Shown one piece after another: positions 2,331 to 23,070 of a stretch of 64,000 bases of DNA. The stretch is taken from positions 3,784-67,783 of the forward strand of contig JBNASH010000033.1 in NCBI GenBank assembly GCA_049720475.1, read 5' to 3'. Source of the stretch: Minisyncoccia bacterium. GTDB lineage: Bacteria; Patescibacteriota; Minisyncoccia; UBA6257; JAAZHW01. The translations under genes were made by a program, and so were the position numbers. Every line of letters starts with the position of its first letter. The stretch's first letter is position 1. The notes under the pieces were generated by a model. That model had not been told where the DNA came from. It saw only the letters and a program-made list of their open reading frames with translations, and made no database searches.

Positions 2331-2349
2331 TATTATAACAAATTTTAAA

Positions 2350-2931
2350 CTAATTTAAAATACTTAAATCCGAACCAATTTCATAAATTGTAGAGTTATT
2401 TCCACCATCTGTAGTTTCCAAAGAGGCATAGGCACTTGACTCTAAATTAGCATTTAATTCATAAGTTGTTAAGCTGCTTGAGGCGGCAAACACATAATAA
2501 TACCCTGAAGAAGTACTATTGGTTGGATCAATTGGCAATGCTGAAATTGGTGAGCGCAGAGTTAAAACACTAAAATTAATTGGTAGCCATCCTGTCGTAC
2601 CTATCGTCCGATAATTACTTAAAGCAGCACAATAAGCTGTTCGTCCACCATAAGAACCGCAGGTGCCAGCACTAGCTAATGGCACAGAAAGATAAGCATA
2701 GGTGGTGTAGCCGGAAAAATTATAATCCTCAGATAAATACAAATTTAATGCCGTTCTTAACGCCGCTAAATCAGAAAGTCTTCGTGAATCTCGAGATTTT
2801 TTTAACATTTCTGAAGGGTTTAAAGTAATTACAATCACACTCATTAACACCGCCAAAATAGCAATAACTATCAATAATTCAATCAAAGTAAAACCTTTTA
2901 AGGAGCTTTTCTGAATATTTTTCTTTGACAT
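2350..2931 (-). CDS. Type IV pilin-like protein, tandem paralogue
   Basis: KGFTLIELLIVIAILAVLMSV motif. The 5-prime ~100 nt and the C-terminal DGGNNSxxYExGSDL are conserved with 1664..2227, while the middle is divergent. Confidence 0.85.
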   Translation of the reverse strand: MSKKNIQKSSLKGFTLIELLIVIAILAVLMSVIVITLNPSEMLKKSRDSRRLSDLAALRTALNLYLSEDYNFSGYTTYAYLSVPLASAGTCGSYGGRTAYCAALSNYRTIGTTGWLPINFSVLTLRSPISALPIDPTNSTSSGYYYVFAASSSLTTYELNANLESSAYASLETTDGGNNSTIYEIGSDLSILN

Positions 2932-2971
2932 TTTGAAAAATTAGAAGTTTATTTTATTTATACCGGCTTTT

Positions 2972-3361
2972 TTATTTTTTGCTTTTATTTAAAAATTCTT
3001 TAATTTTAAAAATTAAATCATCAATGGAAATTTTGGCTTTAACAAAATATTCAACCGCGCCCAATTGTTTGCCTTTTTGAATATCAGTTGTTTGTCCAAG
3101 ATTGGAAATAATAATTACTGGTTTGTTCCTTAAACTAGGATTTTTGGAAATGTTTTCTAAAACTTCAAAACCACTTTTCTTAGGCAAAATTAAATCTAAT
3201 AAAATTAAATCGGGTTCAATTTCATTTAATTTTTTTATCGCTTCATCACCATCCACAGCGGAAATAACCTCCATTTGTTCCTTTTGGAGACGCAATTTTA
3301 AAAGATTAGACAAAAAAGGATCATCTTCAATAACTAAAATTTTAGCCATTGTTTCTGCCAT
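2972..3361 (-). CDS. Single-domain response regulator (CheY-like receiver)
   Basis: KILVIEDDPFL...DLILLDLILPKKSGFEVL...PVIIISN...K receiver signature. No output domain. Confidence 0.85.
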   Translation of the reverse strand: MAETMAKILVIEDDPFLSNLLKLRLQKEQMEVISAVDGDEAIKKLNEIEPDLILLDLILPKKSGFEVLENISKNPSLRNKPVIIISNLGQTTDIQKGKQLGAVEYFVKAKISIDDLIFKIKEFLNKSKK

Positions 3362-3460: not shown

Positions 3461-3570
3461 GTTAAAAAATAAATCTCTTTTTCATTGTTTCGTGCCGCCC
3501 ATCGCTATTCTAAAAAGAATAGCGAACCGACCTAAGGACCTCATTCTCAGCGAGAATGAGCGTCATCCTT

Positions 3571-5095
<1,525 letters not shown>

Positions 5096-5208
5096 AAAAA
5101 ATTTGATCTAACCCCATCCGATTATTATCGAATGGGACTAATACAACTCAAAGGACGACACGAAACAATGAAGAAAAAATTTATTTTTTGTTATTAATGT
5201 GCTAAAAA

Positions 5209-5237
5209 CGAAAATGATAAATTTATTATCATTTTCG
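5209..5237 (-). terminator. 12-bp hairpin plus U-run between rpsI and the 16S (r-protein operon terminator or rRNA leader hairpin)
   Basis: CGAAAATGATAA-ATTTA-TTATCATTTTCG, followed on the minus strand by TTTTTAGCACATTAATAACAA (weakly boxA-like). Confidence 0.5.
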
Positions 5238-5245
5238 ATAGATTT

Positions 5246-5273
5246 ATTTTATTCTTAATTTTTCTGATGTCAA
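5246..5273 (-). promoter_or_regulatory. Sigma70-like promoter TTGACA-16-TAAAAT
   Basis: Minus-strand TTGACA (5273..5268), 16-nt spacer, TAAAAT (5251..5246). It sits right after the rpsI stop and upstream of the 16S leader. Confidence 0.45.
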
Positions 5274-5281
5274 GAATAAAA

Positions 5282-5788
5282 TTAACGCTTAGACCATTGA
5301 GGAGCGCGGCGCGCTTTCTTTAATCCGTACTTCTTTCTTTCAACCATTCTTGCATCGCGAGTAAGAAATCCTACTCGACGCAATCGTTTCTTAAAATCTG
5401 GATTGAAAGCAACCATCGCTCTGGCAATTCCCATTCGCACAGCCTCCGCTTGAGCAGATAACCCTCCTCCTCTCACTATAGCCGTTAAACCAAATTTACC
5501 AGGACATTTCATTTTTTCAAACGGGGCTTCAATCATTGCCTGCAATTTTTTAAAGGGAAAATAAACTTTATAATCTTTTCCATTAATCAAAATTTCTTTA
5601 TTCCGGGTATAAAGTCGAACAATAGCAGTGGCTGTTTTTCTTGAGCCAACGCCTTCATAATAAACTTTCCCTTTGCGTCCTCTTTTTTCTTCTTTAGTTT
5701 CTTCCTCTTCAGAAGTTAAAACTTCGGGATTTTTTTCTTCCGATAATTTATTTTCTTTTTCTTCTGTAGTAATTTTTTTCCTAGGCAT
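5282..5788 (-). CDS. rpsI: 30S ribosomal protein S9 with a ~40-aa acidic/basic N-terminal extension
   Basis: YYEGVGSRKTATAIVRL...GGGLSAQAEAVRMGIARAM...RDARMVERKKYGLKKARRAPQWSKR. Confidence 0.95.
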   Translation of the reverse strand: MPRKKITTEEKENKLSEEKNPEVLTSEEEETKEEKRGRKGKVYYEGVGSRKTATAIVRLYTRNKEILINGKDYKVYFPFKKLQAMIEAPFEKMKCPGKFGLTAIVRGGGLSAQAEAVRMGIARAMVAFNPDFKKRLRRVGFLTRDARMVERKKYGLKKARRAPQWSKR

Positions 5789-6125
5789 ACATCTTTAAAT
5801 TTTTAATTCTTTTTGACCGCAAACTATTTTTAGGCAACATTCCTAAAACAGCTCTTTTTAAAACCTCCGTGGGATTCTTCTCAAAAACTTCCCTTAACTT
5901 TTTTTCTTTTAAATGACCCAGATACCCTGTATGATGTCTGTAAACTTTCTGATAAAATTTCTTTCCCGTAAATTTCATTTTTGAAACATTTTCGACGATG
6001 ACTTTAACATTTGCCACTTTGTTAGGCGCATAATCAGGATTATCTTTGCCTTGCAAAAGAACGGCTATTTTTGAAGCCAAACGTCCTAATGGTTGATTGG
6101 TAGCGTCAATTTTATATTCTCTCAT
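5781..6125 (-). CDS. rplM: 50S ribosomal protein L13 (short form)
   Basis: IDATNQPLGRLASKIAVLLQGK...YRHHTGYLGHLKE...AVLGMLPKN. Overlaps rpsI by 8 nt. Confidence 0.9.
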   Translation of the reverse strand: MREYKIDATNQPLGRLASKIAVLLQGKDNPDYAPNKVANVKVIVENVSKMKFTGKKFYQKVYRHHTGYLGHLKEKKLREVFEKNPTEVLKRAVLGMLPKNSLRSKRIKNLKMYA

Positions 6126-6126
6126 A

Positions 6127-6483
6127 TTAATCCAAAATAAATTCGATTATTGCCATTGGAGCGCCATCGCGTTTCCGAGCGCGAGGACTTTTAATAATGC
6201 GTGTATAACCGCCACGGCGATTTTTCATTTTTGGAGCAATATTATAAAAAAGTTCTTTCGCGGCTGGCTCTCCAATTCGACTAATTAATAAACGATAAGA
6301 AGCAAGGGTTTGTTTTTTGGCTAAAGTTACTAATTTATCAACTAATCTTTTTAGTTCACGAGCTCGTGCTTCAGTAGTTTCGATTTTTTTAGACAAAACA
6401 AAATTATGAATTAAACTCTTCAAAAAGAGTTTGCGATCACCGCGTGTTCTTCCAAATTTTCTGCCTTTTTTTAAGTGACGCAT
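6127..6483 (-). CDS. rplQ: 50S ribosomal protein L17
   Basis: MRHLKKGRKFGRTRGDRKLFLKSLIHNFVLSKKIETTEARARELKRLVDKL. Confidence 0.95.
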   Translation of the reverse strand: MRHLKKGRKFGRTRGDRKLFLKSLIHNFVLSKKIETTEARARELKRLVDKLVTLAKKQTLASYRLLISRIGEPAAKELFYNIAPKMKNRRGGYTRIIKSPRARKRDGAPMAIIEFILD

Positions 6484-6492
6484 AAGTTCGAA

Positions 6493-7281
6493 TTATTTTT
6501 TAGTTGCTTTAGTTTTTTTAGTTTTTTTGGTAGTTGCCTTCTCTTTCTCTTTTTCTTTTATTTCTTCTTTCGTCGCTTTTGTTGTTTCCTCAGGCACTTG
6601 AATATCGGCAACGATTTTAAAATGATCGACCAAAATATCAGCGGCTTGTTTTAGAGCCACACGTGGCAAAATGCTTCCATCGGTTTCAATATAAATTCTT
6701 AAACGGTTATAATCGGTTCTTTCTCCAACGCGCATATTTTCAACTTCGTAGTTCACTTTTTTAACGGGAGTAAAAATTGCATCTAAATTAATTGTTCCGA
6801 TTGGCAATTTTTCTTTCTGACGTGTTTCCGCCGGCGAATAACCAACACCTTCTTCAACGGTTAAAACCATTTCCAATTCTGATTTTTTATCTGTTAAAGT
6901 GGCAATATGTGTTTCGGGATTGATAATTTCAACATTTGAATTTTTGGCAATATCTCGAGCTGTTACCTCTCTTTCTCCTTTGGCAGATAAAGTTAAAGTA
7001 TGAGGGCCGGGGCTATAAACTTTTACTCTGATTTTTTTCAAATTAAGAATAATCTGAATAACATCTTCCAAAACACCTTCAATAGTAGAAAACTCATGAT
7101 GAACGCCTTTGATTTTAACGCTAGTAATGGCTGCACCTTTTAAAGAGGATAAAAGAACCCGACGTAAGGCATTCCCCAAAGTTAAACCATAACCAGTGTA
7201 TAAATTTTCAATTTCAAAAACGCCTTCGGTTTCTGTCTCTTTTATAATTTTTGGTTTTGTGGGTAAAATTAACCCTAACAT
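6493..7281 (-). CDS. rpoA: DNA-directed RNA polymerase alpha subunit, N-terminal domain only, followed by a Lys/Thr/Glu-rich tail
   Basis: GYGLTLGNALRRVLLSSLKGAAITSVKIKGVHHEFSTIEGV is the alpha NTD signature. The ORF ends at 262 aa with EEIKEKEKEKATTKKTKKTKATKK. Confidence 0.9.
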   Translation of the reverse strand: MLGLILPTKPKIIKETETEGVFEIENLYTGYGLTLGNALRRVLLSSLKGAAITSVKIKGVHHEFSTIEGVLEDVIQIILNLKKIRVKVYSPGPHTLTLSAKGEREVTARDIAKNSNVEIINPETHIATLTDKKSELEMVLTVEEGVGYSPAETRQKEKLPIGTINLDAIFTPVKKVNYEVENMRVGERTDYNRLRIYIETDGSILPRVALKQAADILVDHFKIVADIQVPEETTKATKEEIKEKEKEKATTKKTKKTKATKK

Positions 7282-7292
7282 ATTTTTATAAA

Positions 7293-7919
7293 TTAACGTG
7301 AATAAAATTCGACGATTTGTCTAAAATCAAATGGCGGCAATTGTTTTGCCAAGCTTGGCTCGGCAATAATTTTAGCTTCTAGTTTTTCTGGATCAAAACT
7401 TAGATAATCTGGTAGTTGAACTTTTTTAAGTTTTTTATCTAAATTCACAAAAGGAGCCTTGTTCTTACTTTCCGGCCGAATAGAAATTATATCACCCTTT
7501 TTCAATTCATAAGCGGGAACATCGATTTTCTTGCCATTAACCAAAATATGACCGTGACTTACCAGCTGGCGCGCGCCTCGTCGAGAAGAAGAAAAACCCA
7601 AACGATAAATAACATTGTCCAATCGCAATTCTAATTTTTTAAAGAAAATGTCACTGGTTGATTGGGGACTTTTACTTGCTTCTTTAAAGTATTTTTTCAT
7701 TTGAGCTTCATTAACACCGTAAGTAAGCTTAACCTTTCTTACCTCATTCAATTGTTTTCCATATTCAGAAGTGGCTTTTGTGACTTTTTTGCGATGCATA
7801 CCGGGCGCATAAGGCTTTCTAATTAAAGCGCATTTTATAGAATAGCAACGATCCCCTTTCAAAAAAAGTTTTTCCCCAACTCTACGACATTTTCGACATT
7901 TAGCATCTAAAATTGCCAT
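7293..7919 (-). CDS. rpsD: 30S ribosomal protein S4
   Basis: Zinc-ribbon type N-terminus MAILDAKCRKCRRVGEKLFLKGDRC, and S4 domain RLDNVIYRLGFSSSRRGARQLVSHGHILVNG. I chose the ATG at 7919; the track ORF runs on to 7988 inside rpsK. Confidence 0.9.
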   Translation of the reverse strand: MAILDAKCRKCRRVGEKLFLKGDRCYSIKCALIRKPYAPGMHRKKVTKATSEYGKQLNEVRKVKLTYGVNEAQMKKYFKEASKSPQSTSDIFFKKLELRLDNVIYRLGFSSSRRGARQLVSHGHILVNGKKIDVPAYELKKGDIISIRPESKNKAPFVNLDKKLKKVQLPDYLSFDPEKLEAKIIAEPSLAKQLPPFDFRQIVEFYSR

Positions 7920-7923
7920 AATT

Positions 7924-8382
7924 TTATACTCTCCGTGGTTTTGGCGGTCGACATCCGCCGTGTGGAACCGGAGTAATATCTTTAACACTAACGACGTTTA
8001 AATTTTGAGCAATAAAACTTCTTAAAGCGGCTTCCCTACCAGCACCTAATCCTTTGATATAAACATGAAACTCTGGAATAATTAATTTCTTGATTTTTTG
8101 AACAATCGATTCGGCAACTTTGGTAGCCGCAAAGGCAGTTGCTTTTTTGGGTCCTTTAAATTGTAAATGTCCAGCCGATGACCAAGCCAAAGTATTTCCC
8201 AAATGATCAGTCACGGTAATAATAATGTTATTATAAGAAGAGGAAATATAAATATTAGCAAATGGATAACTTCCTTTTTTGCCAACTTCTTTTGATTCAA
8301 CTTTTTTAAGCGCTGATTCCAGCGTCTCTTTTTCTTTTAAAACTTCATTTTCATCTTGAACAGCTACTCTTTTCTTCCCCAT
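7924..8382 (-). CDS. rpsK: 30S ribosomal protein S11 with an N-terminal extension
   Basis: ANIYISSSYNNIIITVTDHLGNTLAWSSAG...KGLGAGREAALR...ITPVPHGGCRPPKPRRV. Confidence 0.95.
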   Translation of the reverse strand: MGKKRVAVQDENEVLKEKETLESALKKVESKEVGKKGSYPFANIYISSSYNNIIITVTDHLGNTLAWSSAGHLQFKGPKKATAFAATKVAESIVQKIKKLIIPEFHVYIKGLGAGREAALRSFIAQNLNVVSVKDITPVPHGGCRPPKPRRV

Positions 8383-8383
8383 A

Positions 8384-8770
8384 TTATTTAAGTTCTAATT
8401 TTCTGCGACCGCTACCGACTGTCCGACGAACATTACCACGAATGGTTCGCGAATTAGTTTTTGTTCGTTGACCGCGCACCGGTAATTTTCTTAAGTGTCT
8501 TATACCACGATAACAATTAATATCTTTTAATCGGCGGATATTAGATTGAATCTCTCGTCTTAAATCACCTTCAATTTTATAATTCGTTTCAATTATATTT
8601 TGCAAACGATTAATTTCTTCGGTTGTTAAATCTTTGGCTTTTTTGTTTTGATTAATATTAGCCATATTTAAAACTTTTCTAGCCAAAGATTGCCCGATTC
8701 CATAAATATAGGATAGGCTAACAAAAATTGGTTTATTATCAGGGATATTTACATTACAAATACGTACCAT
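8384..8770 (-). CDS. rpsM: 30S ribosomal protein S13
   Basis: MVRICNVNIPDNKPIFVSLSYIYGIGQSLARKVL...CYRGIRHLRKLPVRGQRTKTNSRT. Confidence 0.95.
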   Translation of the reverse strand: MVRICNVNIPDNKPIFVSLSYIYGIGQSLARKVLNMANINQNKKAKDLTTEEINRLQNIIETNYKIEGDLRREIQSNIRRLKDINCYRGIRHLRKLPVRGQRTKTNSRTIRGNVRRTVGSGRRKLELK

Positions 8771-8775
8771 ATTTT

Positions 8776-8892
8776 TTAACCTTGTCTTTGTTTATGTTTT
8801 GGATTTTTTTTACAAATAATAAAAACGCGGCCTTTGCGCCTTACTACTTTACAATCGCGACAAATTTTTTTAACCGACGCTCTTACCTTCAT
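8776..8892 (-). CDS. rpmJ: 50S ribosomal protein L36
   Basis: Too short for the ORF track. Hand translation gives [38 protein letters not shown], in the expected position between infA and rpsM. Confidence 0.9.
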
Positions 8893-8901
8893 AAGATTTT
8901 A

Positions 8902-9108
8902 TCATTTGCGATAGACAATACGTCCTCGCTTTTCATCATAAGGGCTTAGTTCAACCACTACCCTATCACCAACCATAATGCGGATAAAATTTAATCTTAA
9001 TTTACCTGATAAATGAGCTAAAACCTCTCTCCCATCATCCAGTTGGACTTTAAAAGTGGTACTGGGTAAGGCTTCGATCACTACGCCCTCAAATTGATTA
9101 TTCTTCAT
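8902..9108 (-). CDS. infA: Translation initiation factor IF-1
   Basis: [59 protein letters not shown]-16-TATAAT promoter lies at about 9146..9173. Confidence 0.95.
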
Positions 9109-9176
9109 AAAAAATGCTTTTCCAACCCAATGGTTGATTATTGTTCATTATAAAAATGTTTTTGAAATAGTCAACA

Positions 9177-10892
9177 CTAAATCGTTTTTTCATCAATTAA
9201 AACTTTGATTCTGTTGGGATTTAAAGGTGTAAACTTTAGGAATTTTGGCCAGATGTCTATTTCTACTTTATTGATAGTTTTATATTGCTTTAAAAATGAT
9301 TCGAGATTATTAACATTTTTTCCTGCCAAATTATTAATGAATTCAGATAAAGAAATTCTGTCACAGAAAACCAAATTAGCAGTAACAGGAAAAGATAAAA
9401 GTTTTTTATCAAAATCAAATCGAGCAGCGCCATAATTGAATTGATAACTAAATAATTCTTTATCCGATAATTGAGAATTGCTTTTTTGGGCTTCATTAAC
9501 AAACAATTTTTTAATATCTTCTTCATTAAATACCAAACTCTTCATCGTAATTTTAGCAGTAGCCTCAAATTGTTCTGCTTTTTCATCTAGTTTTGGATTG
9601 GTTGAAAAACTGACAATTGTAATTTGTTTCGCATCAGGCAAAACAATATCATTAGAAAGCAATTTACTCTTTAACTCTTCTTCCAAAGAAAGAGAAGCAA
9701 TTTCAATTAATTTACTTTTGGCTTGATTAATATCTGATTGACCAACTACTTTTGTTGTTCCTATATAACCACCGGTCATCGGCGAAAGAGATTCAGCATA
9801 AAATTTAGTATAGCGCGGCGTCCCTTCAAAACCAGGAATAGTAAAGGTTGTTGGGCCAATATTATAAGATTCGCCGGCTTGATCAGCGACAACTTCCGCA
9901 TCAATATAAGACGGAACAATTTTTCCATCCTGAATTTTAGCGCCGGGAATTGTTGTTTTGTTTACTAATCTAAAAAGTTTTCCTTCTTTTGATAAAAATC
10001 TTGTTGTTGCCACCAAAACCTGGGGTTCGGAGCTATAAGCATTATAAATTCTTATTGTACCCCTGGCTTTAGCTTGAATAGTTTTTATTTCGGTGGCAGG
10101 AAAGTTTTGAGTAATTGTACGGGAGAATTCAAAAAATTTTACAGGGATTTTAAAATTAGTTTGATCAATCTCGCTAATTCCAGCTGTTGCTAAAACTGGA
10201 ATTTGCTCGGACCAATTATATTTATTAGAAAAAATTCTTACTTCTGCTTTGGCAATAAAATAAATAAGGAAAAAAATGAGGAGAACAAAAACGAAAACGG
10301 AGGCTGACAAAATTTTGATGCCTTTTGTAATTTTAATTTTTGGCTTGAAAGATTTTTCTCTTTTTATTTCTGCTTCATCCAATTCAACGCCGCTGAAATC
10401 TGCTTCGTCAAAATAATCTGTAAAAAATTTTTTCTCAGTATTAATTTTACTCTCCTCACCTTTACCTTTTTTAACCTCAACTTTTTTGGGTTTTTCTGTT
10501 TCTATTTTTTGAATAATTTCTTTAATCTCTGGCAATTCTTCTTCTGATCTCACATCGATTTTCTTTTCAGTTTTTTTTCTTTTTGGTGGCTTAATATCAC
10601 CTAGAAAATTTTTTGTTTTTGGCTTAGGCCTGCTTATTTCTGCCATTTCAATTAATTTCATTCCTGCTTCTTTGGCCATAGCCACAATCTCCTCAACATC
10701 GCTACTAACAAAAAGTTTTTTATCAGCAGCAGCCGCTTCTCTTTTGATCAATTTGAAATTTAACAAAGAATCGGCGATTTTTGCGTTTTGCGGAATAATT
10801 AAAACAACGGTGTCGTTTTTAGAATTAATAATTTTTTCAACGACCTCAGAAACCGATTCAGTTATATCAACATAAATATTTTCTGCTTTCAT
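9177..10892 (-). CDS. Hypothetical membrane-anchored protein (571 aa)
   Basis: N-terminal cytoplasmic domain, Lys/Glu-rich linker, one TM helix (ILSASVFVFVLLIFFLIYFIA) and a large beta-rich extracytoplasmic part. I recognised no family. Confidence 0.5.
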   Translation of the reverse strand: MKAENIYVDITESVSEVVEKIINSKNDTVVLIIPQNAKIADSLLNFKLIKREAAAADKKLFVSSDVEEIVAMAKEAGMKLIEMAEISRPKPKTKNFLGDIKPPKRKKTEKKIDVRSEEELPEIKEIIQKIETEKPKKVEVKKGKGEESKINTEKKFFTDYFDEADFSGVELDEAEIKREKSFKPKIKITKGIKILSASVFVFVLLIFFLIYFIAKAEVRIFSNKYNWSEQIPVLATAGISEIDQTNFKIPVKFFEFSRTITQNFPATEIKTIQAKARGTIRIYNAYSSEPQVLVATTRFLSKEGKLFRLVNKTTIPGAKIQDGKIVPSYIDAEVVADQAGESYNIGPTTFTIPGFEGTPRYTKFYAESLSPMTGGYIGTTKVVGQSDINQAKSKLIEIASLSLEEELKSKLLSNDIVLPDAKQITIVSFSTNPKLDEKAEQFEATAKITMKSLVFNEEDIKKLFVNEAQKSNSQLSDKELFSYQFNYGAARFDFDKKLLSFPVTANLVFCDRISLSEFINNLAGKNVNNLESFLKQYKTINKVEIDIWPKFLKFTPLNPNRIKVLIDEKTI

Positions 10893-12157
10893 TTTTTATA
10901 ATTTTTTAATAAATTTTGATTTAACCATTTAATTCGACGTTTTAAAATTTTGTTCATTTCCTCATATTTAGGCTCTGACACAAAAGGATAAACTAAATTA
11001 GGTATAAGGTTAAAAGAGATATTTGCGGCTCTATTATCCTCTACTTCAATTTCCAAATCAGAAAGAAATCTTTCATTATCATAATAAATTATATTAACCG
11101 GCGTTTTAAAAATACTCACAGGCCAATGGTTTTTTTCAAAACTCTCTATTAAACCAGGAAAGTTTTTCAAAAGACCTATTAAATAAAAACCTTCGATTTT
11201 TTCTTTTGGCGATATTTCTTTAGCCGTTAAGTTCACGCCATCCAATAAAATTTTCAATTCCTTATCAAATAATTTTTTTAACCAATTACTTGCATTCTCG
11301 CTTAAATCACCATTCTCATATTTGTTTTTTATTTCTGTGGCGGTTGTCAAAGAAACAGAAAGGTTTTGAGAAATAGCGAGCAATAAATTCTTTTCTCCCC
11401 AATCAAAATATTTGGCTGTGTTTAAATAATCTGTTATCAATCCGGCGCTCGTAATCGTATAACCAATTTCGACAAGAATATTTTTCTCTATATTATTTAT
11501 TAAAGAAAAAGTTTTATCAAAAATCAAATTTTTTTCTCCGATAAAAAGCAGTTCGCCACCCCATTGCTCTAAAACATTCTTTACTGCTTCCCAAAAAAGG
11601 CAGTGCATGTAAACATTCTCAACACAAAAAGAAAATGTTTTGCCGGTAAAACCAAGAGGATTTAAAACTCTTTTATCATCAATGCGAGGATCGCTTAATT
11701 TTGAATGTGCCAAAACCACATCCCATTCAGAAATTTTCATTTTTTGTCCAACAAAAATACGCTCTTTATCATACAAACGCCAAATCAGATTTAAAATGAC
11801 ATTTTCCAATTCTTCGTGATCAATTGCGGTTAAAGGATTGTCCCTAACAACAGAAAGGCGCGTTTTCGTTGATTTAATAAACGGTTGTTCAAAACTGATA
11901 ATCGCTGGTGTTTTTTTGGAAATTTTTTTAATCTCTTTAGTTAAAATTTTCACCAAATCCTCTTCTCCAAATCCCTCATCATTATCACAAAAATAATTTT
12001 TGATTTTTTTAATTTTTATTTTCTTTTTTTCAAAATCTACCAACGCCAAAGCCGCAGCTATTTCTCTCATTCCTCCAAAAAAGCAAAAAACAGGTTTCCA
12101 ATTTTTATGAAATATTTTGAACATCGTAAATTTTCCTCTCTTTATAATTATAATCAA
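10889..12157 (-). CDS. Hypothetical protein (422 aa; alternative start at 12124)
   Basis: Long ORF whose stop overlaps the downstream start by 4 nt (ATGA). No motif recognised. Confidence 0.5.
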   Translation of the reverse strand: MIIIIKRGKFTMFKIFHKNWKPVFCFFGGMREIAAALALVDFEKKKIKIKKIKNYFCDNDEGFGEEDLVKILTKEIKKISKKTPAIISFEQPFIKSTKTRLSVVRDNPLTAIDHEELENVILNLIWRLYDKERIFVGQKMKISEWDVVLAHSKLSDPRIDDKRVLNPLGFTGKTFSFCVENVYMHCLFWEAVKNVLEQWGGELLFIGEKNLIFDKTFSLINNIEKNILVEIGYTITSAGLITDYLNTAKYFDWGEKNLLLAISQNLSVSLTTATEIKNKYENGDLSENASNWLKKLFDKELKILLDGVNLTAKEISPKEKIEGFYLIGLLKNFPGLIESFEKNHWPVSIFKTPVNIIYYDNERFLSDLEIEVEDNRAANISFNLIPNLVYPFVSEPKYEEMNKILKRRIKWLNQNLLKNYKK

Positions 12158-12165
12158 TAAAGCCG

Positions 12166-13947
12166 CTATTCCAAAATCGCTTTAATCCGTCTGACGCCGC
12201 TTGAAACCGCTTCTTCTTTAATTATTTTAAAATGTCCTAGAATACCTGTATTTTGCACGTGGGGTCCACCACAAATTTCTTTTGAATAAGCTTTTGCTGG
12301 ATCACCAATAAAATAAACTTTGACTCGTTCGCCATATTTATCTTCAAAAAGTCCAACAGCACCAATTTCTTTCGCTCTACTTAAACTCATTTCTTCCATA
12401 TAAACCGGCAGGTTCTCTTGTATTTTCTGATTAACTATTTCTTCAACTTTCTTTAATTGCTCTGGGGTAGGCTTTCCCGAATAAGAATAATCAAAACGCA
12501 ACCGCTCTTCATTGATATGACTACCTCTTTGTTTAACTTCCTCACCTAAAACTTCTCTTAAAGCTTTATGCAATAAATGAGTGGCTGTGTGATACTTGAT
12601 AGCTTTTTCAGAATGTTCCGCTAATCCTCCTTTAAACATCCCAGCCGATGCCGTACGTGATAATTCTTGATGTTTTTTAAATTCCTGATTAAAACCATCC
12701 TCGTCAATTTTTACCCCTTTTTCCTTGGCTATCTCTTTAATTAATTCCAAAGGAAAACCATAACTTTGATACAAACCAAAAGCATCCGCGCCACTAATCT
12801 CATTTTTGTTTTGAATAATTTTTTCTAATATATTAAGACCTCTTTCCAGTGTTTTGGTAAATTTTTCTTCTTCGCGAACTAATTGTTCTTCGATAAAATC
12901 CTTATTTTCCTTGATCTCTGAGTAAAAATCGCCATAAATTTCTAAAACAGGGGCAAGTAGTTGAAAAGAAAAAGTTTTTTGAACGCCTAACAATCGCCCA
13001 AACCGAACCGCTCGACGAATTAACCTTCTTAAAATATATCCCCTTTCCACATTCGATGGTTCTAACTTTTCAGCCAGCAAAAAAATAGCTGCTTTTAAAT
13101 GATCGGCAATAATTCTAAATTCTCTTGCATATTCACTATATTTTTTGCCAGTAATTTCCTCGATTTTTTTAATCAATGGTTCAAAAAGCTCGGTTTCAAA
13201 AACTGTTGGCAAACCATTAATGGCAGCAAGCGTTCTTTCTAACCCCATTCCCGTATCAACATTTTTTTGTTTCAAAACTTCATAAGTACCATCGGCTTTG
13301 CGATTATAAGTCATAAAAACATTATTCCAAATTTCTACCCAGTTAGGATTTTTTGGGTCAAAATTTTTTGGCGCTGGCTCATTAGAAATCCAATAAAAAA
13401 TTTCTGAATCAGGACCACAGGGTCCGGTTTCACCAATCGGCCCCCACCAATTATCTTTTTTGCCCAAAAAAGCAATCCGCTCCGCCGGAATACCTGAGCG
13501 GCGCCAGATTTGATAAGATTCCTCATCTTTCGGCGCATCTTCATCGCCACCAAAACAAGTCACCGCCAACCGATTTTTATCTAATGCCAGCCATTGGGGC
13601 GAAGTTAAAAATTCCAGACTCCAACTAAGCGATTCTTCTTTAAAATAATCACCCAAAGACCAATTGCCTAACATTTCAAAAAAAGTTAAATGTGAAGCAT
13701 CGCCCACTTCTTCAATATCATCAGTTCTCAAACATTTTTGAACATCACACAATCGCTTGCCCGCTGGATGCTTTTCACCAAGCAAAAAAGGAATTAAAGG
13801 ATGCATCCCGGCCGTCGTAAAAAGAACACTTGGATCGTTTTCTGGAATTAAAGGAGCCGAGGGTAATCTTTTGTGTCCTCTTTCTTCAAAAAATTTTAAA
13901 AATTTTTCTCGCAATTCATTTCCTCTCATAATTTTTATTCTAATCAT
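12166..13947 (-). CDS. alaS: Alanyl-tRNA synthetase, short form (likely start at 13929, MRGNELREKF)
   Basis: FLKFFEERGHKRLPSAPLIP...DPSVLFTTAGM, WNNVFM, HTATHLLHKALREVLG and CGGPHV motifs. The ORF ends soon after the editing-site motifs. Confidence 0.9.
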   Translation of the reverse strand: MIRIKIMRGNELREKFLKFFEERGHKRLPSAPLIPENDPSVLFTTAGMHPLIPFLLGEKHPAGKRLCDVQKCLRTDDIEEVGDASHLTFFEMLGNWSLGDYFKEESLSWSLEFLTSPQWLALDKNRLAVTCFGGDEDAPKDEESYQIWRRSGIPAERIAFLGKKDNWWGPIGETGPCGPDSEIFYWISNEPAPKNFDPKNPNWVEIWNNVFMTYNRKADGTYEVLKQKNVDTGMGLERTLAAINGLPTVFETELFEPLIKKIEEITGKKYSEYAREFRIIADHLKAAIFLLAEKLEPSNVERGYILRRLIRRAVRFGRLLGVQKTFSFQLLAPVLEIYGDFYSEIKENKDFIEEQLVREEEKFTKTLERGLNILEKIIQNKNEISGADAFGLYQSYGFPLELIKEIAKEKGVKIDEDGFNQEFKKHQELSRTASAGMFKGGLAEHSEKAIKYHTATHLLHKALREVLGEEVKQRGSHINEERLRFDYSYSGKPTPEQLKKVEEIVNQKIQENLPVYMEEMSLSRAKEIGAVGLFEDKYGERVKVYFIGDPAKAYSKEICGGPHVQNTGILGHFKIIKEEAVSSGVRRIKAILE

Positions 13948-13954
13948 TTTTTTA

Positions 13955-13984
13955 AAAAAGAAAAATCCGCCCTACTGGCGGATT
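13955..13984 (-). terminator. Intrinsic terminator of cassette A (stop codon in the loop)
   Basis: Minus strand AATCCGCC-AGTAG-GGCGGATT followed by TTTTCTTTTTT. The TAG stop of 13972..14352 lies in the loop. Confidence 0.7.
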
Positions 13985-14352
13985 GACTTTCTTAGAATTT
14001 CTACTCTTAAAAAGAAATTTCCTTCTTTTCTTTCAGCGATTTCTTCAATTTTTTCTTTTCCGACCGCCTTTTCTAACTCACCTACTTTAACCTCCACAAT
14101 TTGCAAAAATTTCTTTAAGGGCAACAGTTTGAAAACATTTACAGCTTCAACTTTCAATAATACTGGTTTAACTAATCTAACAATTCTGTTTTCTCTTTCT
14201 AAAATTATTTCTCTTCTTCCTCTCTTCTCCATTAATTTAATTAAACTTCTTTCGATTTTCTCTTCTTCTTTTTCTATGTGAGCCTTTTTTCTCCGCAGCT
14301 CCACTAGCTGCCTCCCTAATTTTTCCAACCGATGGTTTCTATTTTTTCTCAT
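13972..14352 (-). CDS. Hypothetical coiled-coil protein (126 aa), cassette A gene 2
   Basis: ATG at 14352 is preceded by GAAAGGAGGCAAA. N-terminal Arg/Lys/Glu coiled coil, then a beta-rich part. Any resemblance to phage Gam-like proteins is weak and unverified. Confidence 0.5.
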   Translation of the reverse strand: MRKNRNHRLEKLGRQLVELRRKKAHIEKEEEKIERSLIKLMEKRGRREIILERENRIVRLVKPVLLKVEAVNVFKLLPLKKFLQIVEVKVGELEKAVGKEKIEEIAERKEGNFFLRVEILRKSIRQ

Positions 14353-14611
14353 TTTGCCTCCTTTCAATCTTTTCAATAAAATCTCTTAAAACAAAAAATC
14401 GGCGTTTTTTTAGTTCATCCTGCCTCTGCTTCAAATTAGCAATTTTTTCATTGATTTCGTATAAATCCTGCATCCATCGCAACCGACTCAACTCTGCCCC
14501 CCAAAATTCCTGTTTGCTCAATAAACTTCTTTGTAGTTCCAATCTTTGCACCTCAGTTTCCAAAAAAGCAATCTCTCTACTGAGTAACAAAATAATTTCT
14601 CTTTCACTCAT
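14339..14611 (-). CDS. Hypothetical coiled-coil protein (90 aa), cassette A gene 1
   Basis: ATG at 14611 is preceded by TTAAAAATTTAATAAAGGAGGTTTTATAAA. Heptad-like sequence LETEVQRLELQRSLL...ANLKQRQDELKK. Confidence 0.55.
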   Translation of the reverse strand: MSEREIILLLSREIAFLETEVQRLELQRSLLSKQEFWGAELSRLRWMQDLYEINEKIANLKQRQDELKKRRFFVLRDFIEKIERRQNEKK

Positions 14612-14656
14612 TTTATAAAACCTCCTTTATTAAATTTTTAATTTTTGCTAACTTTA

Positions 14657-14684
14657 ATATTACAATTTTTTATTTATTTGTCAA
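14657..14684 (-). promoter_or_regulatory. Consensus promoter TTGACA-16-(TG)TAATAT of cassette A
   Basis: Minus-strand TTGACA 14684..14679 and TGTAATAT 14664..14657, about 45 nt upstream of the ATG at 14611. Confidence 0.6.
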
Positions 14685-14715
14685 CGATTACTTCCTATCT
14701 TGCTTTTAATAATTT

Positions 14716-16023
14716 TTACCAATTGAAAATCAATTTAATGGTTCTCATTATAATTGCCAAATCAAACCAAAAAGATTGATTGCGAATATAATACAAATCA
14801 TATTCAAATTTTTTTAATTCATCTTCCAAACAAGCGGCATAACGATAATTTAATTGCGCCCAACCAGCCAAACCAGGCTTGATTAAATTTCTCAAATAAT
14901 AAATTGGCTTTTCTTTCACGCATAAATCAAAAAGTTCTTTTTCAATCGGCCGCGGCCCAACAAAAGACATTTCTCCTTTCAAAATATTAACTAACTGCGG
15001 TAATTCATCTAAATGCGTCTTTCTCAAAAATTTTCCCACCCTCGTAATTCTTTCATCATTCTCTTTTGACCATCGCGATGAATTAGAAACATTTTGATAC
15101 ATTGAACGAAACTTATAAATTTTAAACAACTTGCCATTTTGGCCAACACGCCAAGAAGAATAAAAAATTGGCCCCGCAGAATCAATTTTTATTGCCAAAA
15201 TAATCAAAGGCCAAAACGGCAAACTCACAACTAAAAAAATCAACGCCAAAATAAAATCGCAAACATCTTTAATAAAAAGATTAATTTTTTGATGATAGAG
15301 ATTAAAGTAATCCAAAAACCAATTTTCATCAACAAAATTTAATGGCACGCACTTAAAAATCAACGAATAAAAATCAGCCGTATCATAAATCTCAACTTTT
15401 TTAAACATCATCTTTAAAAGCACGTCCTTTAATTCTTTCTGAGAAGATAAATTATCAACCACAATCACTTTAATGCCATCTTTTTCAAACATTCTTTCCA
15501 CATCTTCCTTTTTTATGCCATCAATTTTTTCAATATGTGTTATAAGTTTATAACCCAATTGAGGTGATTCTTCTAAGTGTTTTTTGATTTCCTTTATTTC
15601 TTCGCTTTCGCCGATTAATAAAGTTTTATAAACCAGATGTCGAGAGAAAACCGAATAAAAAACTAGCCGCCAAACCAAAACAAAAACAGAAGAAAAAACA
15701 ATAATCAAGATTAAATTGGTTTTTGGCGTAATGATGGGGTAAAGATAAAAAATGATAATGGCTAAAACAACATTAATGATCTGTAATTTTGTTAAAGAAG
15801 ATATTATTTTTTTTCTTTCCCTAAAATTTATTAACTCATAAAAATGTCCTATGTAAAAAATAAAAATCCAAACTAAAAAAATTATGGAAAAAAGCTTCAA
15901 GTGAATAATTAAATAATCAGCGCTTAAATTTCTAATAATCGCCATTAAATAAAGTGAAAAATAAAAACAGATGATGTCGCCTATCACCAAAATAATTTTT
16001 CTAATTTTTTCCGCGAAAGACAT
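14716..16023 (-). CDS. Polyprenyl-phosphate sugar phosphotransferase (WbaP/EpsL-type bacterial sugar transferase)
   Basis: N-terminal TM bundle plus a C-terminal domain with GPIFYSSWRVGQNGKLFKIYKFRSM...DELPQLVNILKGEMSFVGPRP. Confidence 0.85.
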   Translation of the reverse strand: MSFAEKIRKIILVIGDIICFYFSLYLMAIIRNLSADYLIIHLKLFSIIFLVWIFIFYIGHFYELINFRERKKIISSLTKLQIINVVLAIIIFYLYPIITPKTNLILIIVFSSVFVLVWRLVFYSVFSRHLVYKTLLIGESEEIKEIKKHLEESPQLGYKLITHIEKIDGIKKEDVERMFEKDGIKVIVVDNLSSQKELKDVLLKMMFKKVEIYDTADFYSLIFKCVPLNFVDENWFLDYFNLYHQKINLFIKDVCDFILALIFLVVSLPFWPLIILAIKIDSAGPIFYSSWRVGQNGKLFKIYKFRSMYQNVSNSSRWSKENDERITRVGKFLRKTHLDELPQLVNILKGEMSFVGPRPIEKELFDLCVKEKPIYYLRNLIKPGLAGWAQLNYRYAACLEDELKKFEYDLYYIRNQSFWFDLAIIMRTIKLIFNW

Positions 16024-16034
16024 ATTCGTCTTTA

Positions 16035-16940
16035 TTATCGCCTATTTTTTCTCTTTTGCAAAAACAAATACCAATCGTAAAGCAACGGACTAGCAATAAA
16101 AATAGACGAATAAGTGCCAAAGAAAGTGCCAATTAAAAGAACGAGGGTAAAATAAAAAAGATTGCTGAGACCAAAAATTAAAAGCGCTATAAGAACCAAG
16201 ATTAAAGTTGCAGAGGTTAAAATGGAACGGCGCATTGTTTCATTTATACTTTCGTTAATGACTTGCCCAAAATCTAAACCAGGATGAGTTCTTAATTTTT
16301 CACGAATCCGATCAAAAACAACAATGGTATCATGAACCGAAAAACCCAAAACAACAAGCAAAGCAACAATAAAATTCGAATCTATTTCCACTCCCTTTAA
16401 AAAACCTAAAAGAGCAAATAATCCAGCCGGAATACTAATATCATGAATTAAAGCTAAAATAGCAGTCACCCCATATCGCCATGAAGCCATTGGCCTTGAA
16501 ACCTGACGAAAAGCCCAAGCAAGATAAAGAATGATCAAGATGATGACTAAAATAATAGCGGTGATTGATTTATTTCTTAATTCCTTTCCAATGGTTGGAC
16601 CAAAAGAATCAAATCTCATTTCTTCAATTTTGGGATAGTGCTGTTTGATTTGAGAAAGAATTAATTGATGATTTTCTTCAGAAACATCATTTGAACGAAT
16701 TGTTAGTCCGTCATTTCCATTTGGAGAAATAGAAACAAATTGATAACCATATTGCTTATAAATATCTTCGATTACTTTATATTCTATTTGGGTGTTGTTC
16801 AATTTTAATTCTAAAAGTGAACCGCCCACAAAATCCATACCGGGCTTTAAACCAAAAACAATCAAAAATACCCAAGACGCTAATACTAAAATAGCAGATA
16901 TTCCATAAGCAATTTTTCTTTTTTGAACAAAATTAATCAT
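16035..16940 (-). CDS. secF: Protein translocase subunit SecF
   Basis: MDFVGGSLLEL..., FGPTIGKELR, and a C-terminal 6-TM domain with HDTIVVFDRIRE. Confidence 0.9.
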   Translation of the reverse strand: MINFVQKRKIAYGISAILVLASWVFLIVFGLKPGMDFVGGSLLELKLNNTQIEYKVIEDIYKQYGYQFVSISPNGNDGLTIRSNDVSEENHQLILSQIKQHYPKIEEMRFDSFGPTIGKELRNKSITAIILVIILIILYLAWAFRQVSRPMASWRYGVTAILALIHDISIPAGLFALLGFLKGVEIDSNFIVALLVVLGFSVHDTIVVFDRIREKLRTHPGLDFGQVINESINETMRRSILTSATLILVLIALLIFGLSNLFYFTLVLLIGTFFGTYSSIFIASPLLYDWYLFLQKRKNRR

Positions 16941-16945
16941 AATTT

Positions 16946-18241
16946 TTATTTAATAAAAACTCTCAAAAAAGACCGCGTTAAAACCACAGCTGAAAACATA
17001 CTCACCAAAACACCTATCAACAAAGTTAAAGCAAATCCTTTAATCATTGAACTGGTAAAATTATAAAGCACTAAACAAGTAATAATAGAAGATATATTGG
17101 AATCACGAATTGAAGGCCAAGCGCGACGAAAACCTTCTATTAAAGCGCGCTTTTTCTCCAAACCGCGTTTTATTTCTTCTTTATATCTTTCAAAAATTAA
17201 AATATTAGCATCAACCGCCATTCCAACCGACAAAATAAAACCAGCAATGCCGGATAATGTTAAAGTAACGGGTATTATTTTAAAGATAGAGAGATTAATA
17301 ATTGTATAGATAATTAAAGCCAAAGAGGCAACAAAACCAAGAAAGCCATACATTAAAATCATAAAAGCAATCACAACCAGCAAACCAATCAAGCCGGCTT
17401 TAATGCTAAGTTTTAAAAAGAATTCTCCTTGGAGAGCGCCCACTGATTGTTGAGAAATGAGTTTAATCGGTACTGGCAAAGCGCCAGCGTTTAAATTTTC
17501 AACCAGTTTTTTCGCCTCCTCAGCCGTGAATTTACCGGTAATCTGAGCCTGACCAGAACTAATTTCTTCCTGAACTACCGGCAAAGAAATTGGTTGACCA
17601 TCTAAATAAATCGCTAAAATTTTTCCTACATTCTTTTTGGTTAATTCGGCAAAAATTTTTGCGCCTTCATCATTAAATTCTAAACTCACCATTGGTTCAT
17701 AAGTGCGTGGATTGAAATCTAAACGAGCTGCCTTTAAATATTTACCCGTCAATAAAGGTTGCGATGGCACAAAATAAGGATCAACAAAAGCGTAATCAGG
17801 ATTTTTATTTTTTTGTTCCTCTAAAATTTTTTCTGTTTCTTCCTTTGGCCGCTCTTCGCGAAATTCTAAGTAGGGCGTTTCTCCGATCATTTGAATAGCC
17901 GAGGCAATATCTTTAACGCCGGCTAACTCAACATTTAAACGATAATCATTACCCACTTTGACCACTTCCACTCGCGGTTCACTCACTCCAAATAAATTAA
18001 CCCTTCGCTCAATAACATCGCGCAAACCATTCATTGCCGAATCACGATCTTTCGCTTCAACCTGCGATAAATCAGCCTCATAAATTAAACGCGTGCCCCC
18101 GCTTAAATCCAAACCTAAACGATACGGTTTTTTAAACCAATTGGGTAAAAAATTAAATTGGCCATAAGCAAATAGGCCACCAATAATTGCTAAAATTAAA
18201 ATGATAATAACAAAAATTAAATTCTTCGAATGTTCATTCAT
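16946..18241 (-). CDS. secD: Protein translocase subunit SecD
   Basis: LGLDLSGGTRLIYEAD, LEFREE, SIKAGLIGLLVVIAFMILMY and GMAVDANILIFERYKEE. Confidence 0.9.
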   Translation of the reverse strand: MNEHSKNLIFVIIILILAIIGGLFAYGQFNFLPNWFKKPYRLGLDLSGGTRLIYEADLSQVEAKDRDSAMNGLRDVIERRVNLFGVSEPRVEVVKVGNDYRLNVELAGVKDIASAIQMIGETPYLEFREERPKEETEKILEEQKNKNPDYAFVDPYFVPSQPLLTGKYLKAARLDFNPRTYEPMVSLEFNDEGAKIFAELTKKNVGKILAIYLDGQPISLPVVQEEISSGQAQITGKFTAEEAKKLVENLNAGALPVPIKLISQQSVGALQGEFFLKLSIKAGLIGLLVVIAFMILMYGFLGFVASLALIIYTIINLSIFKIIPVTLTLSGIAGFILSVGMAVDANILIFERYKEEIKRGLEKKRALIEGFRRAWPSIRDSNISSIITCLVLYNFTSSMIKGFALTLLIGVLVSMFSAVVLTRSFLRVFIK

Positions 18242-18302
18242 GGCAAATTAGTTTTATTCTAATCTAAAATAAATTATTTTCAAGCAATTTTTGTTTTTAT
18301 TG

Positions 18303-18375
18303 TCCCCCCGGCAGGACTCGAACCTGCAACTTTCTGCTTAAAAGGCAGCTACTCTACCAATTGAGTTACGGGGGG
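18303..18375 (-). tRNA. tRNA-Lys (anticodon UUU), CCA not encoded
   Basis: Hand-folded cloverleaf: CCCCCCG/CGGGGGG acceptor, anticodon loop CTTTTAA, T-arm GCAGG-TTCGAGT-CCTGC. Confidence 0.9.
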
Positions 18376-18410
18376 ATAAAAAGAACTTATTTAAAAATAA
18401 TAACTTTTTT

Positions 18411-18767
18411 TTAGAAAATTTCAAGAATTTTTGGTAGGAAAACAAGAAAACCGACAATTAAGGCAGTTAAAGAAGCAACTAGCACAGCGGCCGCCACTAA
18501 ATCTTTTGCTACTTTCACAATCGGATTAATTTCCGGCCGCAAATAATCAAAACTTCTTTCCCAAGCAGTATTAATAATTTCCAAAGTCAAAACCAAACCC
18601 ATACTTAAAACAATCATCACCCATTCCAACAAAGAAATTTTAAACAAAATTCCAAGAATACAAACCAAAATAACAATAAAAAGCATCACACGGAAAGAAT
18701 GTCCCTTTATCGCCTCCTTCAAACCATCAAATGCAAAAGAAAAACTTTTTATCAATTTTTGAAACAT
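18411..18767 (-). CDS. dgkA: Diacylglycerol/undecaprenol kinase (DgkA family)
   Basis: 118-aa 3-TM protein with FSFAFDGLKEAIK...EIINTAWERSFD. Confidence 0.8.
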   Translation of the reverse strand: MFQKLIKSFSFAFDGLKEAIKGHSFRVMLFIVILVCILGILFKISLLEWVMIVLSMGLVLTLEIINTAWERSFDYLRPEINPIVKVAKDLVAAAVLVASLTALIVGFLVFLPKILEIF

Positions 18768-18773
18768 AATTTT

Positions 18774-20174: not shown

Positions 20175-20995
20175 AATTGAAATAAATTAAAACAATTTTC
20201 TGTAGTTATTTCAGCAATTTTATTTAAAGACATTTTTTTGATTTTGGCAACTTTTTCGGCAATAAATTCCACAAAAATCGGCTCATTTCTTTTTCCTCGA
20301 TAAGGAACCGGTGCGACATAAGGACAGTCTGTTTCTACTAATAATTTATCCAAGGGCAAAGAGGCGATAATATTATCATAACTTTCCGTAAAAGTAATCA
20401 CGCCTGGAAAAGAAATATAAAATCCGTGTTGAATAAATTCTTTAGCCAGTTTTAAATCGCCGGAAAAAAAATGAACCACTCCACTCCGAACACTTTTTTC
20501 ATTAAATCCATAATTTTTTAAAATTTCTAAAGCATCAAAGTAAGCATCTAAATTTTTGCTGGCGCGAAGATGCAAAACTAAAGGTTTTTGAATTTCTTTG
20601 GCAAATTCTATTTGTTTTTTAAATTCTTCCTTTTGCTTTTCTCTGGCTTCTTTTGATGAGTTATGAAAATAATCCAAACCACATTCGCCCACTCCTACTA
20701 TTTTCTTGCTTTGCGCCAATTGAAAAAATTTCTCTTTCATAAAAAATTCAACCTCGCTTTCTCCCTCATTTGGATCTCGAGATTCAAAAAGATGAATAGG
20801 ATGAAGTCCTATTACCGCATATAAAAAATCATATTCTTCTGCTAATTCCAATGCTTTTTGGGATAATAAAAAATTAGAACCAATATTAATGGCCCAAATA
20901 TTTTTCTGCTTCATCCGCTCAATGACTTCTTTTCTATCATTATCATAAGCGGCAAATTGCAAATGGGCGTGAGAATCAATTAGAAATGGTTTCAT
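20171..20995 (-). CDS. tatD: TatD-family metal-dependent hydrolase/DNase
   Basis: LIDSHAHLQF..., GECGLDY, LVLHLR, VETDCPYVAP. Confidence 0.85.
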   Translation of the reverse strand: MKPFLIDSHAHLQFAAYDNDRKEVIERMKQKNIWAINIGSNFLLSQKALELAEEYDFLYAVIGLHPIHLFESRDPNEGESEVEFFMKEKFFQLAQSKKIVGVGECGLDYFHNSSKEAREKQKEEFKKQIEFAKEIQKPLVLHLRASKNLDAYFDALEILKNYGFNEKSVRSGVVHFFSGDLKLAKEFIQHGFYISFPGVITFTESYDNIIASLPLDKLLVETDCPYVAPVPYRGKRNEPIFVEFIAEKVAKIKKMSLNKIAEITTENCFNLFQL

Positions 20996-20996
20996 A

Positions 20997-22475: not shown

Positions 22476-22517
22476 AATAAAATAATAATTGTCGATTTTT
22501 AAATTTCAAATTTAAAA

Positions 22518-23036: not shown

Positions 23037-23070
23037 AAATGGCGAACCGGAGGCTCGCCATTTTTCTATT

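Follow-up and report, generated by a model that had tools for sequence, protein, structure and literature searches.

The RNA polymerase α subunit encoded in a 64,000-nucleotide stretch of a Minisyncoccia bacterium genome (contig JBNASH010000033.1; hereafter the window) ends after its N-terminal domain (NTD) and a short tail, without a C-terminal domain (α-CTD). A textbook component of bacterial transcription, the α-CTD recognises UP elements, notably those of rRNA promoters, and offers CRP-type and many other activators a surface on which to dock. In the family studied here the CTD is absent from a frameshift-free gene, the same pattern extends across whole clades, the tail is conserved in length and charge, and near-consensus promoters are enriched in the window. 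We consider it highly probable that this reflects a genuine, inherited loss of the α-CTD, which has left a complete NTD followed by a disordered tail of linker length with a polybasic end, in an RNA polymerase (RNAP) that would rely on σ and whose tail perhaps acts as a tether to DNA.

The rpoA open reading frame encodes 262 amino acids (Table 1), and the ORF list and the Pfam matches agree with the sequence-only reading that its NTD is clear. The RpoA insert domain (PF01000, RNA_pol_A_bac) was matched over residues 55–171 (E 6.3e-34) with the profile fully covered from position 1 to 119, and the Rpb3/Rpb11-type dimerisation domain (PF01193, RNA_pol_L) over residues 29–221 (E 1.3e-23). In NCBIfam the protein scored 272.8 bits against TIGR02027, above the curated equivalog cut-off of 227.8, and 298.3 bits against NF003519 (cut-off 277), and it fell below the cut-offs of six other PRK05182 sub-models because the CTD portion is missing: only the first ~234–255 positions of the rpoA models, which run to 298–344 positions, are covered. 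The alignments with α subunits in the PDB (305–368 aa) stop at query residue ~249 (their own residues ~15–257), the best of them being of the E 1e-62 class (down to 4e-62) and covering the NTD and the start of the linker. An AlphaFold2 model built from an alignment of 70 sequences placed residues 11–220 mostly at a pLDDT of ~87–93, with brief drops to 71–77. Among 70 homologs, 29 NTD columns are invariant and the LGNALRR motif, which aligns with LGNSLRR of B. subtilis, is conserved, while the NTD is 50–60% identical to the NTDs of CTD-bearing relatives. Judging by this conservation, the NTD-only α should dimerise (α2) and assemble β and β′. The window holds no second α paralog.

Table 1 Features of the rpoA locus and its surroundings (positions in the window)
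Feature	Position	Strand	Basis and remarks
rpoA, RNA polymerase α subunit without α-CTD	6493..7281	minus	ATG start, 262 aa plus stop; Pfam, NCBIfam and PDB matches
α N-terminal domain, residues 1–227 (dimerisation; β/β′ assembly platform)	6601..7281	minus	Pfam, AlphaFold2, conservation
Linker-like tail part of mixed acidic and basic residues, residues 228–248, QVPEETTKATKEEIKEKEKEK	6538..6600	minus	Aligns with the B. subtilis α linker (residues ~228–247); pLDDT 54–62
Polybasic C-terminal cap, residues 249–262, ATTKKTKKTKATKK	6496..6537	minus	K+R content; pLDDT <50 at 254–262
rplQ (L17)	6127..6483	minus	PF01196, E 6e-28; begins 9 nt past the rpoA stop
rpsD (S4), immediately upstream of rpoA	7293..7919	minus	PF00163, PF01479
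infA-rpmJ-rpsM-rpsK, upstream genes of the rpoA operon	7924..9108	minus	PF01176, PF00444, PF00416, PF00411
rplM-rpsI, downstream genes of the rpoA operon	5282..6125	minus	PF00572, PF00380
Putative rpoA-operon promoter, TTGACT-16-TATAAT, 11/12, upstream of infA	9147..9174	minus	Consensus match only
Predicted 16S promoter, TTGACA-16-TAAAAT	5246..5273		Consensus scan; directly after the rpsI stop

Canonical bacterial RpoA (TIGR02027/PRK05182; B. subtilis 6WVJ chain A, E. coli) possesses the same complete NTD, with PF01193 and PF01000, and the same rpsM-rpsK-rpsD-rpoA-rplQ gene order; the B. subtilis α aligned with the window protein at E 4e-62 over residues 14–248. However, the canonical subunit has a helix-hairpin-helix α-CTD of ~65 aa (PF03118), whereas the window protein ends in a tail of linker length with a polybasic cap. 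Archaeal RpoD and eukaryotic Rpb3, which are homologous assembly-platform subunits, likewise have no α-CTD, but the window protein is clearly of the bacterial type and reaches only 29.2 bits against the archaeal RpoD model NF001988 (cut-off 153). By its NTD, its curated score and its gene order we thus classify it as a bacterial RpoA, one without the CTD.

The claim that nothing but a low-complexity tail follows the NTD is borne out by the profile searches. PF03118 (RNA_pol_A_CTD) gave no match in RpoA even at E ≤ 10, in the same Pfam comparison that recovered PF01000, and both the family models and the solved α subunits stop aligning at the NTD or the linker. The tails of 150 CTD-less homologs show no leftover CTD similarity either (best E 0.23). 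Some details of the first description needed small corrections, one of them being that rpoA lies on the minus strand: the NTD (…HFKIVADI) ends at residue 227 rather than 228, and the tail has 35 residues rather than ~34 (QVPEETTKATKEEIKEKEKEKATTKKTKKTKATKK).

The gene occupies its place in a canonical operon, infA-rpmJ-rpsM-rpsK-rpsD-rpoA-rplQ-rplM-rpsI, in which each neighbour was identified by Pfam, and the window as a whole carries the ribosomal and other gene set normal for a CPR bacterium. A short rpoA could in principle be an artefact of assembly, sequencing or gene calling (a frameshift, a premature stop or a chimeric contig) that hides a true protein with a CTD, and public PF03118-only ‘proteins’ do stem from ordinary rpoA genes that are frameshifted, broken by an N-gap or cut off where a contig ends. 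Here, however, rplQ begins 9 nt after rpoA and rpsD ends 11 nt before it, so that no spare DNA is left for a frameshifted CTD. The identical 262-aa protein, again with a 9-nt gap to the L17 gene, is present in an independent Logan assembly, and a 94%-identical 260-aa RpoA lies in a like gene order on a 322-kb JGI contig. The rpoA-rplQ junction is equally tight (−4 to +7 nt) in four CTD-less loci of species representatives. Moreover, among the 120 best matches (90%-identity clusters) from a 5.8-billion-protein collection, 108 are 244–291 aa long and lack PF03118; these come from NCBI, JGI, ENA and Logan, on contigs of up to 322 kb, so that the build recurs in over 100 distinct clusters of homologs. 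No frameshift or sequencing error that would restore a longer rpoA was found, and as far as sequence can show the artefact is refuted; we give it practically no chance. The CTD might instead have its own gene at another place in the genome and join RNAP in trans, an idea favoured by the size of the genome (probably 0.5–1 Mb, of which 64 kb were searched) and by the many PF03118-only proteins of 60–112 aa from Patescibacteria-type samples. We built a custom α-CTD HMM from 12 CTD-bearing CPR relatives and the E. coli CTD, which detected the CTDs of 76 related loci at E 1e-15 to 1e-27 and those of the control loci at E 1e-20 to 1e-23. Run with filters off on all six frames of the window, it returned at best a 28-residue fragment at E 0.46, which is noise; it found no match in the 20.8 kb around rpoA of the 94%-identical relative, and no CTD lies within 3 kb on either side of the four CTD-less species loci. 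As for the free-standing proteins, a profile search of a large protein collection with 16 CPR CTDs listed 120 matches of 60–112 aa that carry PF03118 alone, and the six on the longest contigs all occupy the usual rpoA place, with rpsD (or a fragment of the NTD) on one side and rplQ on the other. One (L085) is at a contig end, one (L081) has its linker interrupted by a run of N, one (L082) belongs to an assembly of 1.1x coverage in which several genes are broken, one (L083) has NTD DNA upstream that was left uncalled, and one (L084) follows a 223-aa NTD ORF with which it overlaps by 4 nt. Since the six examined are pieces of canonical rpoA loci (contig end, N-gap, frameshifted or uncalled NTD), such proteins offer no evidence of a split gene. 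Furthermore, a free CTD would be deprived of the covalent tether that positions it. Neither the window nor the related loci nor the PF03118-only proteins checked for their context yielded a stand-alone CTD gene, and we regard a split α as very improbable.

CTD loss is not a general trait of CPR or Parcubacteria. Among 80 Paceibacteria loci of GTDB species representatives (Sung-, Portnoy-, Kaiser-, Yonath-, Taylor-, Nomura-, Niyogi- and Tagabacteria, Paceibacter and others), 76 retain a normal linker and CTD, and only L001, L002, L013 (Brennerbacteria) and L060 are CTD-less; on these sequences, the loss is confined to certain clades and is not CPR-wide. Similarly, the best 150 representatives of 50%-identity clusters comprise ~90 sequences with a CTD, ~40 short ones with Lys-rich ends and several obvious frameshift products. 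In a neighbour-joining tree of 348 near-complete NTDs (214 NTD columns), the window RpoA falls into a purely CTD-less clade (n = 44) that adjoins another (n = 56) with named Wolfebacteria and Brennerbacteria; jointly the two hold 99 CTD-less sequences, four CTD-bearing ones (P0052, P0126, L076 and L079) and one unclassified. Other parts of the tree contain additional CTD-less groups, with 12, 11 and fewer members. Fitch parsimony counts 24 changes on this tree, a figure not to be taken literally because the tree is weakly resolved and includes fragments. For the same reason our conclusion goes no further than the existence of two or more large CTD-less clades and a probable loss of the domain on several independent occasions. 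The taxonomy of the CTD-less sequences rests on a few named matches (Wolfebacteria, Brennerbacteria, ‘Paceibacterota’ and ‘Parcubacteria group’).

We next turn to the tail itself, which the AlphaFold2 model renders as a low-confidence helix followed by coil (pLDDT 39–62). Across 150 CTD-less sequences the tail is 15–58 aa long with a median of 33, against a median of 31 for the interdomain linker of 182 CTD-bearing relatives, and no lineage has trimmed it below ~15 aa. The two segments differ in charge: the tails have a median net charge of +5 and are positive in 85% of cases, whereas the linkers have a median of −5 and are positive in 15%, a difference whose p-value should be read as nominal, given the phylogenetic relatedness of the sequences. 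The linkers of the 76 Paceibacteria loci alone have a median of −7, and 4% of them are positive. The basic residues are gathered at the end: the first 12 tail residues contain 31% D+E, while the last 12 average 56% K+R and reach at least 50% in 86% of the 150 sequences. In the window RpoA the figure for the last 12 residues is 58%, the most basic C-terminus among the 61 genes of the window (mean 21%). Overall the tails consist of K (34%), E (19.5%), A (8%) and T (7%), and N, I, F and Y are nearly absent; these four are the residues that neutral A+T drift would favour. Between relatives that are still 75–94% identical, the tails already differ in exact sequence and length and show many indels; such rapid turnover is usual for a disordered segment in which composition, and not the individual position, is constrained. 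The low-complexity tail of the first description is therefore present, but its conserved length and basic end across CTD-less lineages are not those of mere filler.

The promoters of the window had likewise been called very regular and close to consensus. This holds: a match of at least 10 of 12 positions to TTGACA-N16-18-TATAAT is found in 16 of 34 intergenic regions, against 2.7 ± 1.5 in composition-matched shuffles, mostly with a 16-nt spacer and in one case perfect (12/12). A generic promoter scan of 5000..24000 gave 87 sites versus 68 ± 7 in shuffles. The proposed tie between these promoters and the loss of the CTD is plausible but only correlative. The near-consensus site ahead of infA is likely the promoter of the rpoA operon. 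The distal region upstream of the predicted 16S promoter falls within the end of rpsI and is therefore G+C-rich coding DNA rather than the A/T-rich sequence of an UP element. Upstream of the 16 strongest promoters, positions −36 to −65 have an A+T content of 72%, which gives no signal for or against upstream contacts because the genome itself is 67% A+T.

How might such an enzyme work? Work on E. coli α truncated to residues 1–235 found that it supports assembly and basal transcription but neither UP-element use nor CRP-type activation (Igarashi & Ishihama 1991; Hayward et al. 1991; Ross et al. 1993, as cited in PMC8321222). On these grounds, an RNAP without α-CTD would touch neither UP elements nor activators of the class I/II type through this domain, and by analogy the NTD-only enzyme of the window would be expected to have lost the response to both; any such contacts might then take a different route, as the sequence-only reading proposed. 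Because α-CTD contacts would be impossible, the enzyme would rely on σ–promoter contacts, and the promoters of the window do lie unusually near the −35/−10 consensus. The likeliest role for the conserved basic end, of which each enzyme would carry two, would be a weak, sequence-independent electrostatic contact with upstream DNA, and in that case it would stand in only for the non-specific share of α-CTD function.

Whether the tail does anything at all is the question on which the remaining readings divide. The main alternative accepts the loss as real but takes the tail to be an inert leftover of the linker, kept K/E-rich by a general leaning of AT-rich proteomes towards low complexity, with no α-mediated upstream contact by RNAP. 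The equal lengths of tail and linker and the fast turnover of the tail fit this idea, as do the genome’s base composition (33% G+C) and lysine content (9.4%). In L076 and L079, the closest relatives that retain a CTD, the linker is already K/E-rich and of mixed charge, and the tail could therefore be what remains of such a linker; S9 and S11 of the window bear K/E-rich N-terminal extensions that resemble the RpoA tail, so proteomes of this kind may be prone to basic, low-complexity tails in general. Against it stand the inversion of charge between the acidic linkers of relatives and the basic tails, the lack of any lineage with a tail under ~15 aa, and the near absence of the other residues with AT-rich codons (N, I, F and Y). 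In addition, the polybasic cap recurs on tails that are rich in Ala, Gly, Pro and Ser (P0151, P0173, P0180 and P0210), which argues against pure AT bias. We consider an inert remnant quite possible, if short of probable. That the polybasic cap, held on a tether of linker length, touches upstream DNA weakly and non-specifically is a tentative proposal, which we would call possible rather than expected. Somewhat more doubtful still is the broader form of this proposal, according to which the α-CTD was replaced and not merely lost in several Parcubacteria/Paceibacteria lineages, the disordered tether and its cap holding upstream DNA so that ‘upstream DNA wrapping’ is kept while UP-element reading and α-CTD-dependent activation are abolished. 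Another factor might also have assumed the role of the α-CTD, be it an unrelated DNA-binding protein that docks on the tail, an extended σ, or an insertion in β or β′. Nothing speaks for this directly; the window has many unannotated ORFs (for example 9177..10892 and 10889..12157, without a Pfam match), but none is an α-CTD-like or helix-hairpin-helix-like candidate, and we judge the idea improbable. The rpoB, rpoC and σ genes lie outside the window.

Several known systems resemble parts of this arrangement. RNAP with E. coli α(1–235) shares the NTD-only α, and by analogy with it assembly and basal σ-directed transcription would be expected of the window enzyme, and UP-element use and CRP class I activation would not. 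However, that α is a laboratory construct with a blunt end, whereas the state described here is natural, fixed in whole clades and accompanied by a conserved basic tail. In nature, an NTD-only α is known from the endosymbionts Hodgkinia and Tremblaya and from the Euglena plastid rpoA (PMC8321222). As in the window, the NTD is kept, the CTD is gone, the state is heritable and the genomes are reduced; but those are organelles or obligate intracellular symbionts under extreme erosion, some with a damaged NTD, whereas here the NTD is intact and conserved, the group is an environmental CPR group represented by hundreds of sequence clusters, and the tail appears to be under compositional constraint. 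For the tail, the closest functional analogy is Rpo13, a subunit of Sulfolobus RNAP with a disordered Glu-rich N-terminal tail and a Lys-rich C-terminal tail, deletion of which abolishes non-sequence-specific binding of double-stranded DNA (PMC3479171). The window tail is likewise disordered and Lys-rich and may bind DNA in a similar manner, although Rpo13 is an unrelated protein from another domain of life, without homology, and acts near downstream DNA, not upstream of the promoter. More generally, as a disordered, lysine-rich terminal segment the tail matches the polybasic DNA-binding tails of the Rpo13-like and histone H1-like kind, a likeness that would be functional only.

A CTD-less α in Parcubacteria is not categorically new, because the bare fact has already been remarked upon, in one sentence of a 2021 paper (PMC8321222). 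The source given there for the claim (Nelson & Stegen 2015, PMC4508563) does not contain the word ‘polymerase’ in its main text, and its supplement just lists rpoA as a core gene; no other documentation of the loss was found in the literature searched, and a comparative study of 2025 calls the α-CTD ubiquitously present across Bacteria (PMC12531629). What is undocumented, as far as we could find, is that the loss is restricted to certain clades, that an environmental lineage combines it with an intact NTD, and that the tail is conserved, with the length of a linker and the opposite charge.

A well-populated environmental clade with an intact NTD and no CTD amounts to a natural experiment on RNAP without α-mediated contacts to promoters and activators. 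It predicts a promoter architecture dominated by strong −35/−10 elements, with which the window is consistent, and it means that the regulatory models and rpoA profile cut-offs derived from model bacteria do not transfer to the CTD-less lineages. Should the α-CTD have been replaced rather than merely lost, a large natural bacterial radiation would initiate transcription on near-consensus σ promoters without α-mediated regulation, and evolution would have reached this solution repeatedly. If the basic tail binds DNA, it would constitute a new, minimal means of upstream contact; if it does not, these lineages would still present a clear-cut example, not documented so far, of a core enzyme that has lost a domain as a module.

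The intergenic regions of the window are strongly enriched for near-consensus promoters of the sigma-70 type, as predicted from their match to the consensus: 16 of the 34 regions carry a site matching at 10 or more of the 12 positions, against 2.7 ± 1.5 in shuffled sequences. The spacer of these intergenic sites is mostly 16 nt rather than 17 nt long. The individual sites, together with the other features of the window and of L087, the contig of a relative whose RpoA is 94% identical, are collected in the table below.

Features in the window and in the related contig L087
Feature	Position	Strand	Remarks
Near-consensus promoter-like site	9147..9174	-	consensus match
Near-consensus promoter-like site	5246..5273	-	consensus match
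Perfect TTGACA-16-TATAAT	upstream of gene 49104..49628	-	one such site; consensus match
Complete 16S rRNA gene	3569..5099	-	directly downstream of rpsI
ORF, 571 aa	9177..10892	-	immediately upstream of infA; without Pfam match
ORF, 422 aa	10889..12157	-	pairs with 9177..10892 upstream of infA; without Pfam match
rpsI (S9), with a K/E-rich N-terminal extension of ~45 aa	5282..5788	-	Pfam domain from residue 48
rpsK (S11), with a K/E-rich N-terminal extension of ~45 aa	7924..8382	-	Pfam domain from residue 44
G+C-rich hairpin, 8-bp stem	13964..13984	both	terminator-like score on each strand
Type IV pilus/T2SS-like cluster	L087 13897..19651		94% relative; downstream of the r-protein operon

The place upstream of infA, usually occupied by secY-adk-map, holds two large ORFs for which a Pfam search returned zero matches; the relative keeps both of these unannotated genes, at lengths of 573 and 411 aa. 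Its pilus-like cluster comprises N_methyl pilins, a T2SSE ATPase and T2SSF, with an adjoining response regulator, and the ATPase has 569 aa, the length also of one ORF of the window, which may be its counterpart. Within the window, the terminator-like hairpin adjoins the ORFs 12166..13947 and 13972..14376 and has its clearer T-run on the minus strand. The extensions of S9 and S11 are low-complexity and charged, resembling the tail of rpoA.

At locus L084 of a MAG (2333..3315; GCA_964589525.1, CAZPRM010000013.1), the gene calls divide rpoA between two ORFs that overlap by 4 nt, one encoding a 223-aa NTD and the other a 104-aa linker and CTD. This arrangement is probably a frameshift error; less probably, alpha is genuinely split there. 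Three cluster representatives among the RpoA homologues, P0121 (569 aa), P0122 (526 aa) and P0172 (664 aa), show similarity to the alpha NTD either over two stretches lying apart or at a long distance from their own N-terminus. They may thus stem from duplication or fusion of alpha genes, or else be chimeras of the assembly.

The 16S rRNA gene has its own promoter-like site, which abuts the stop codon of rpsI. Since an Rfam search of the whole 64-kb window matched neither 23S nor 5S rRNA, the rRNA genes appear to be unlinked.
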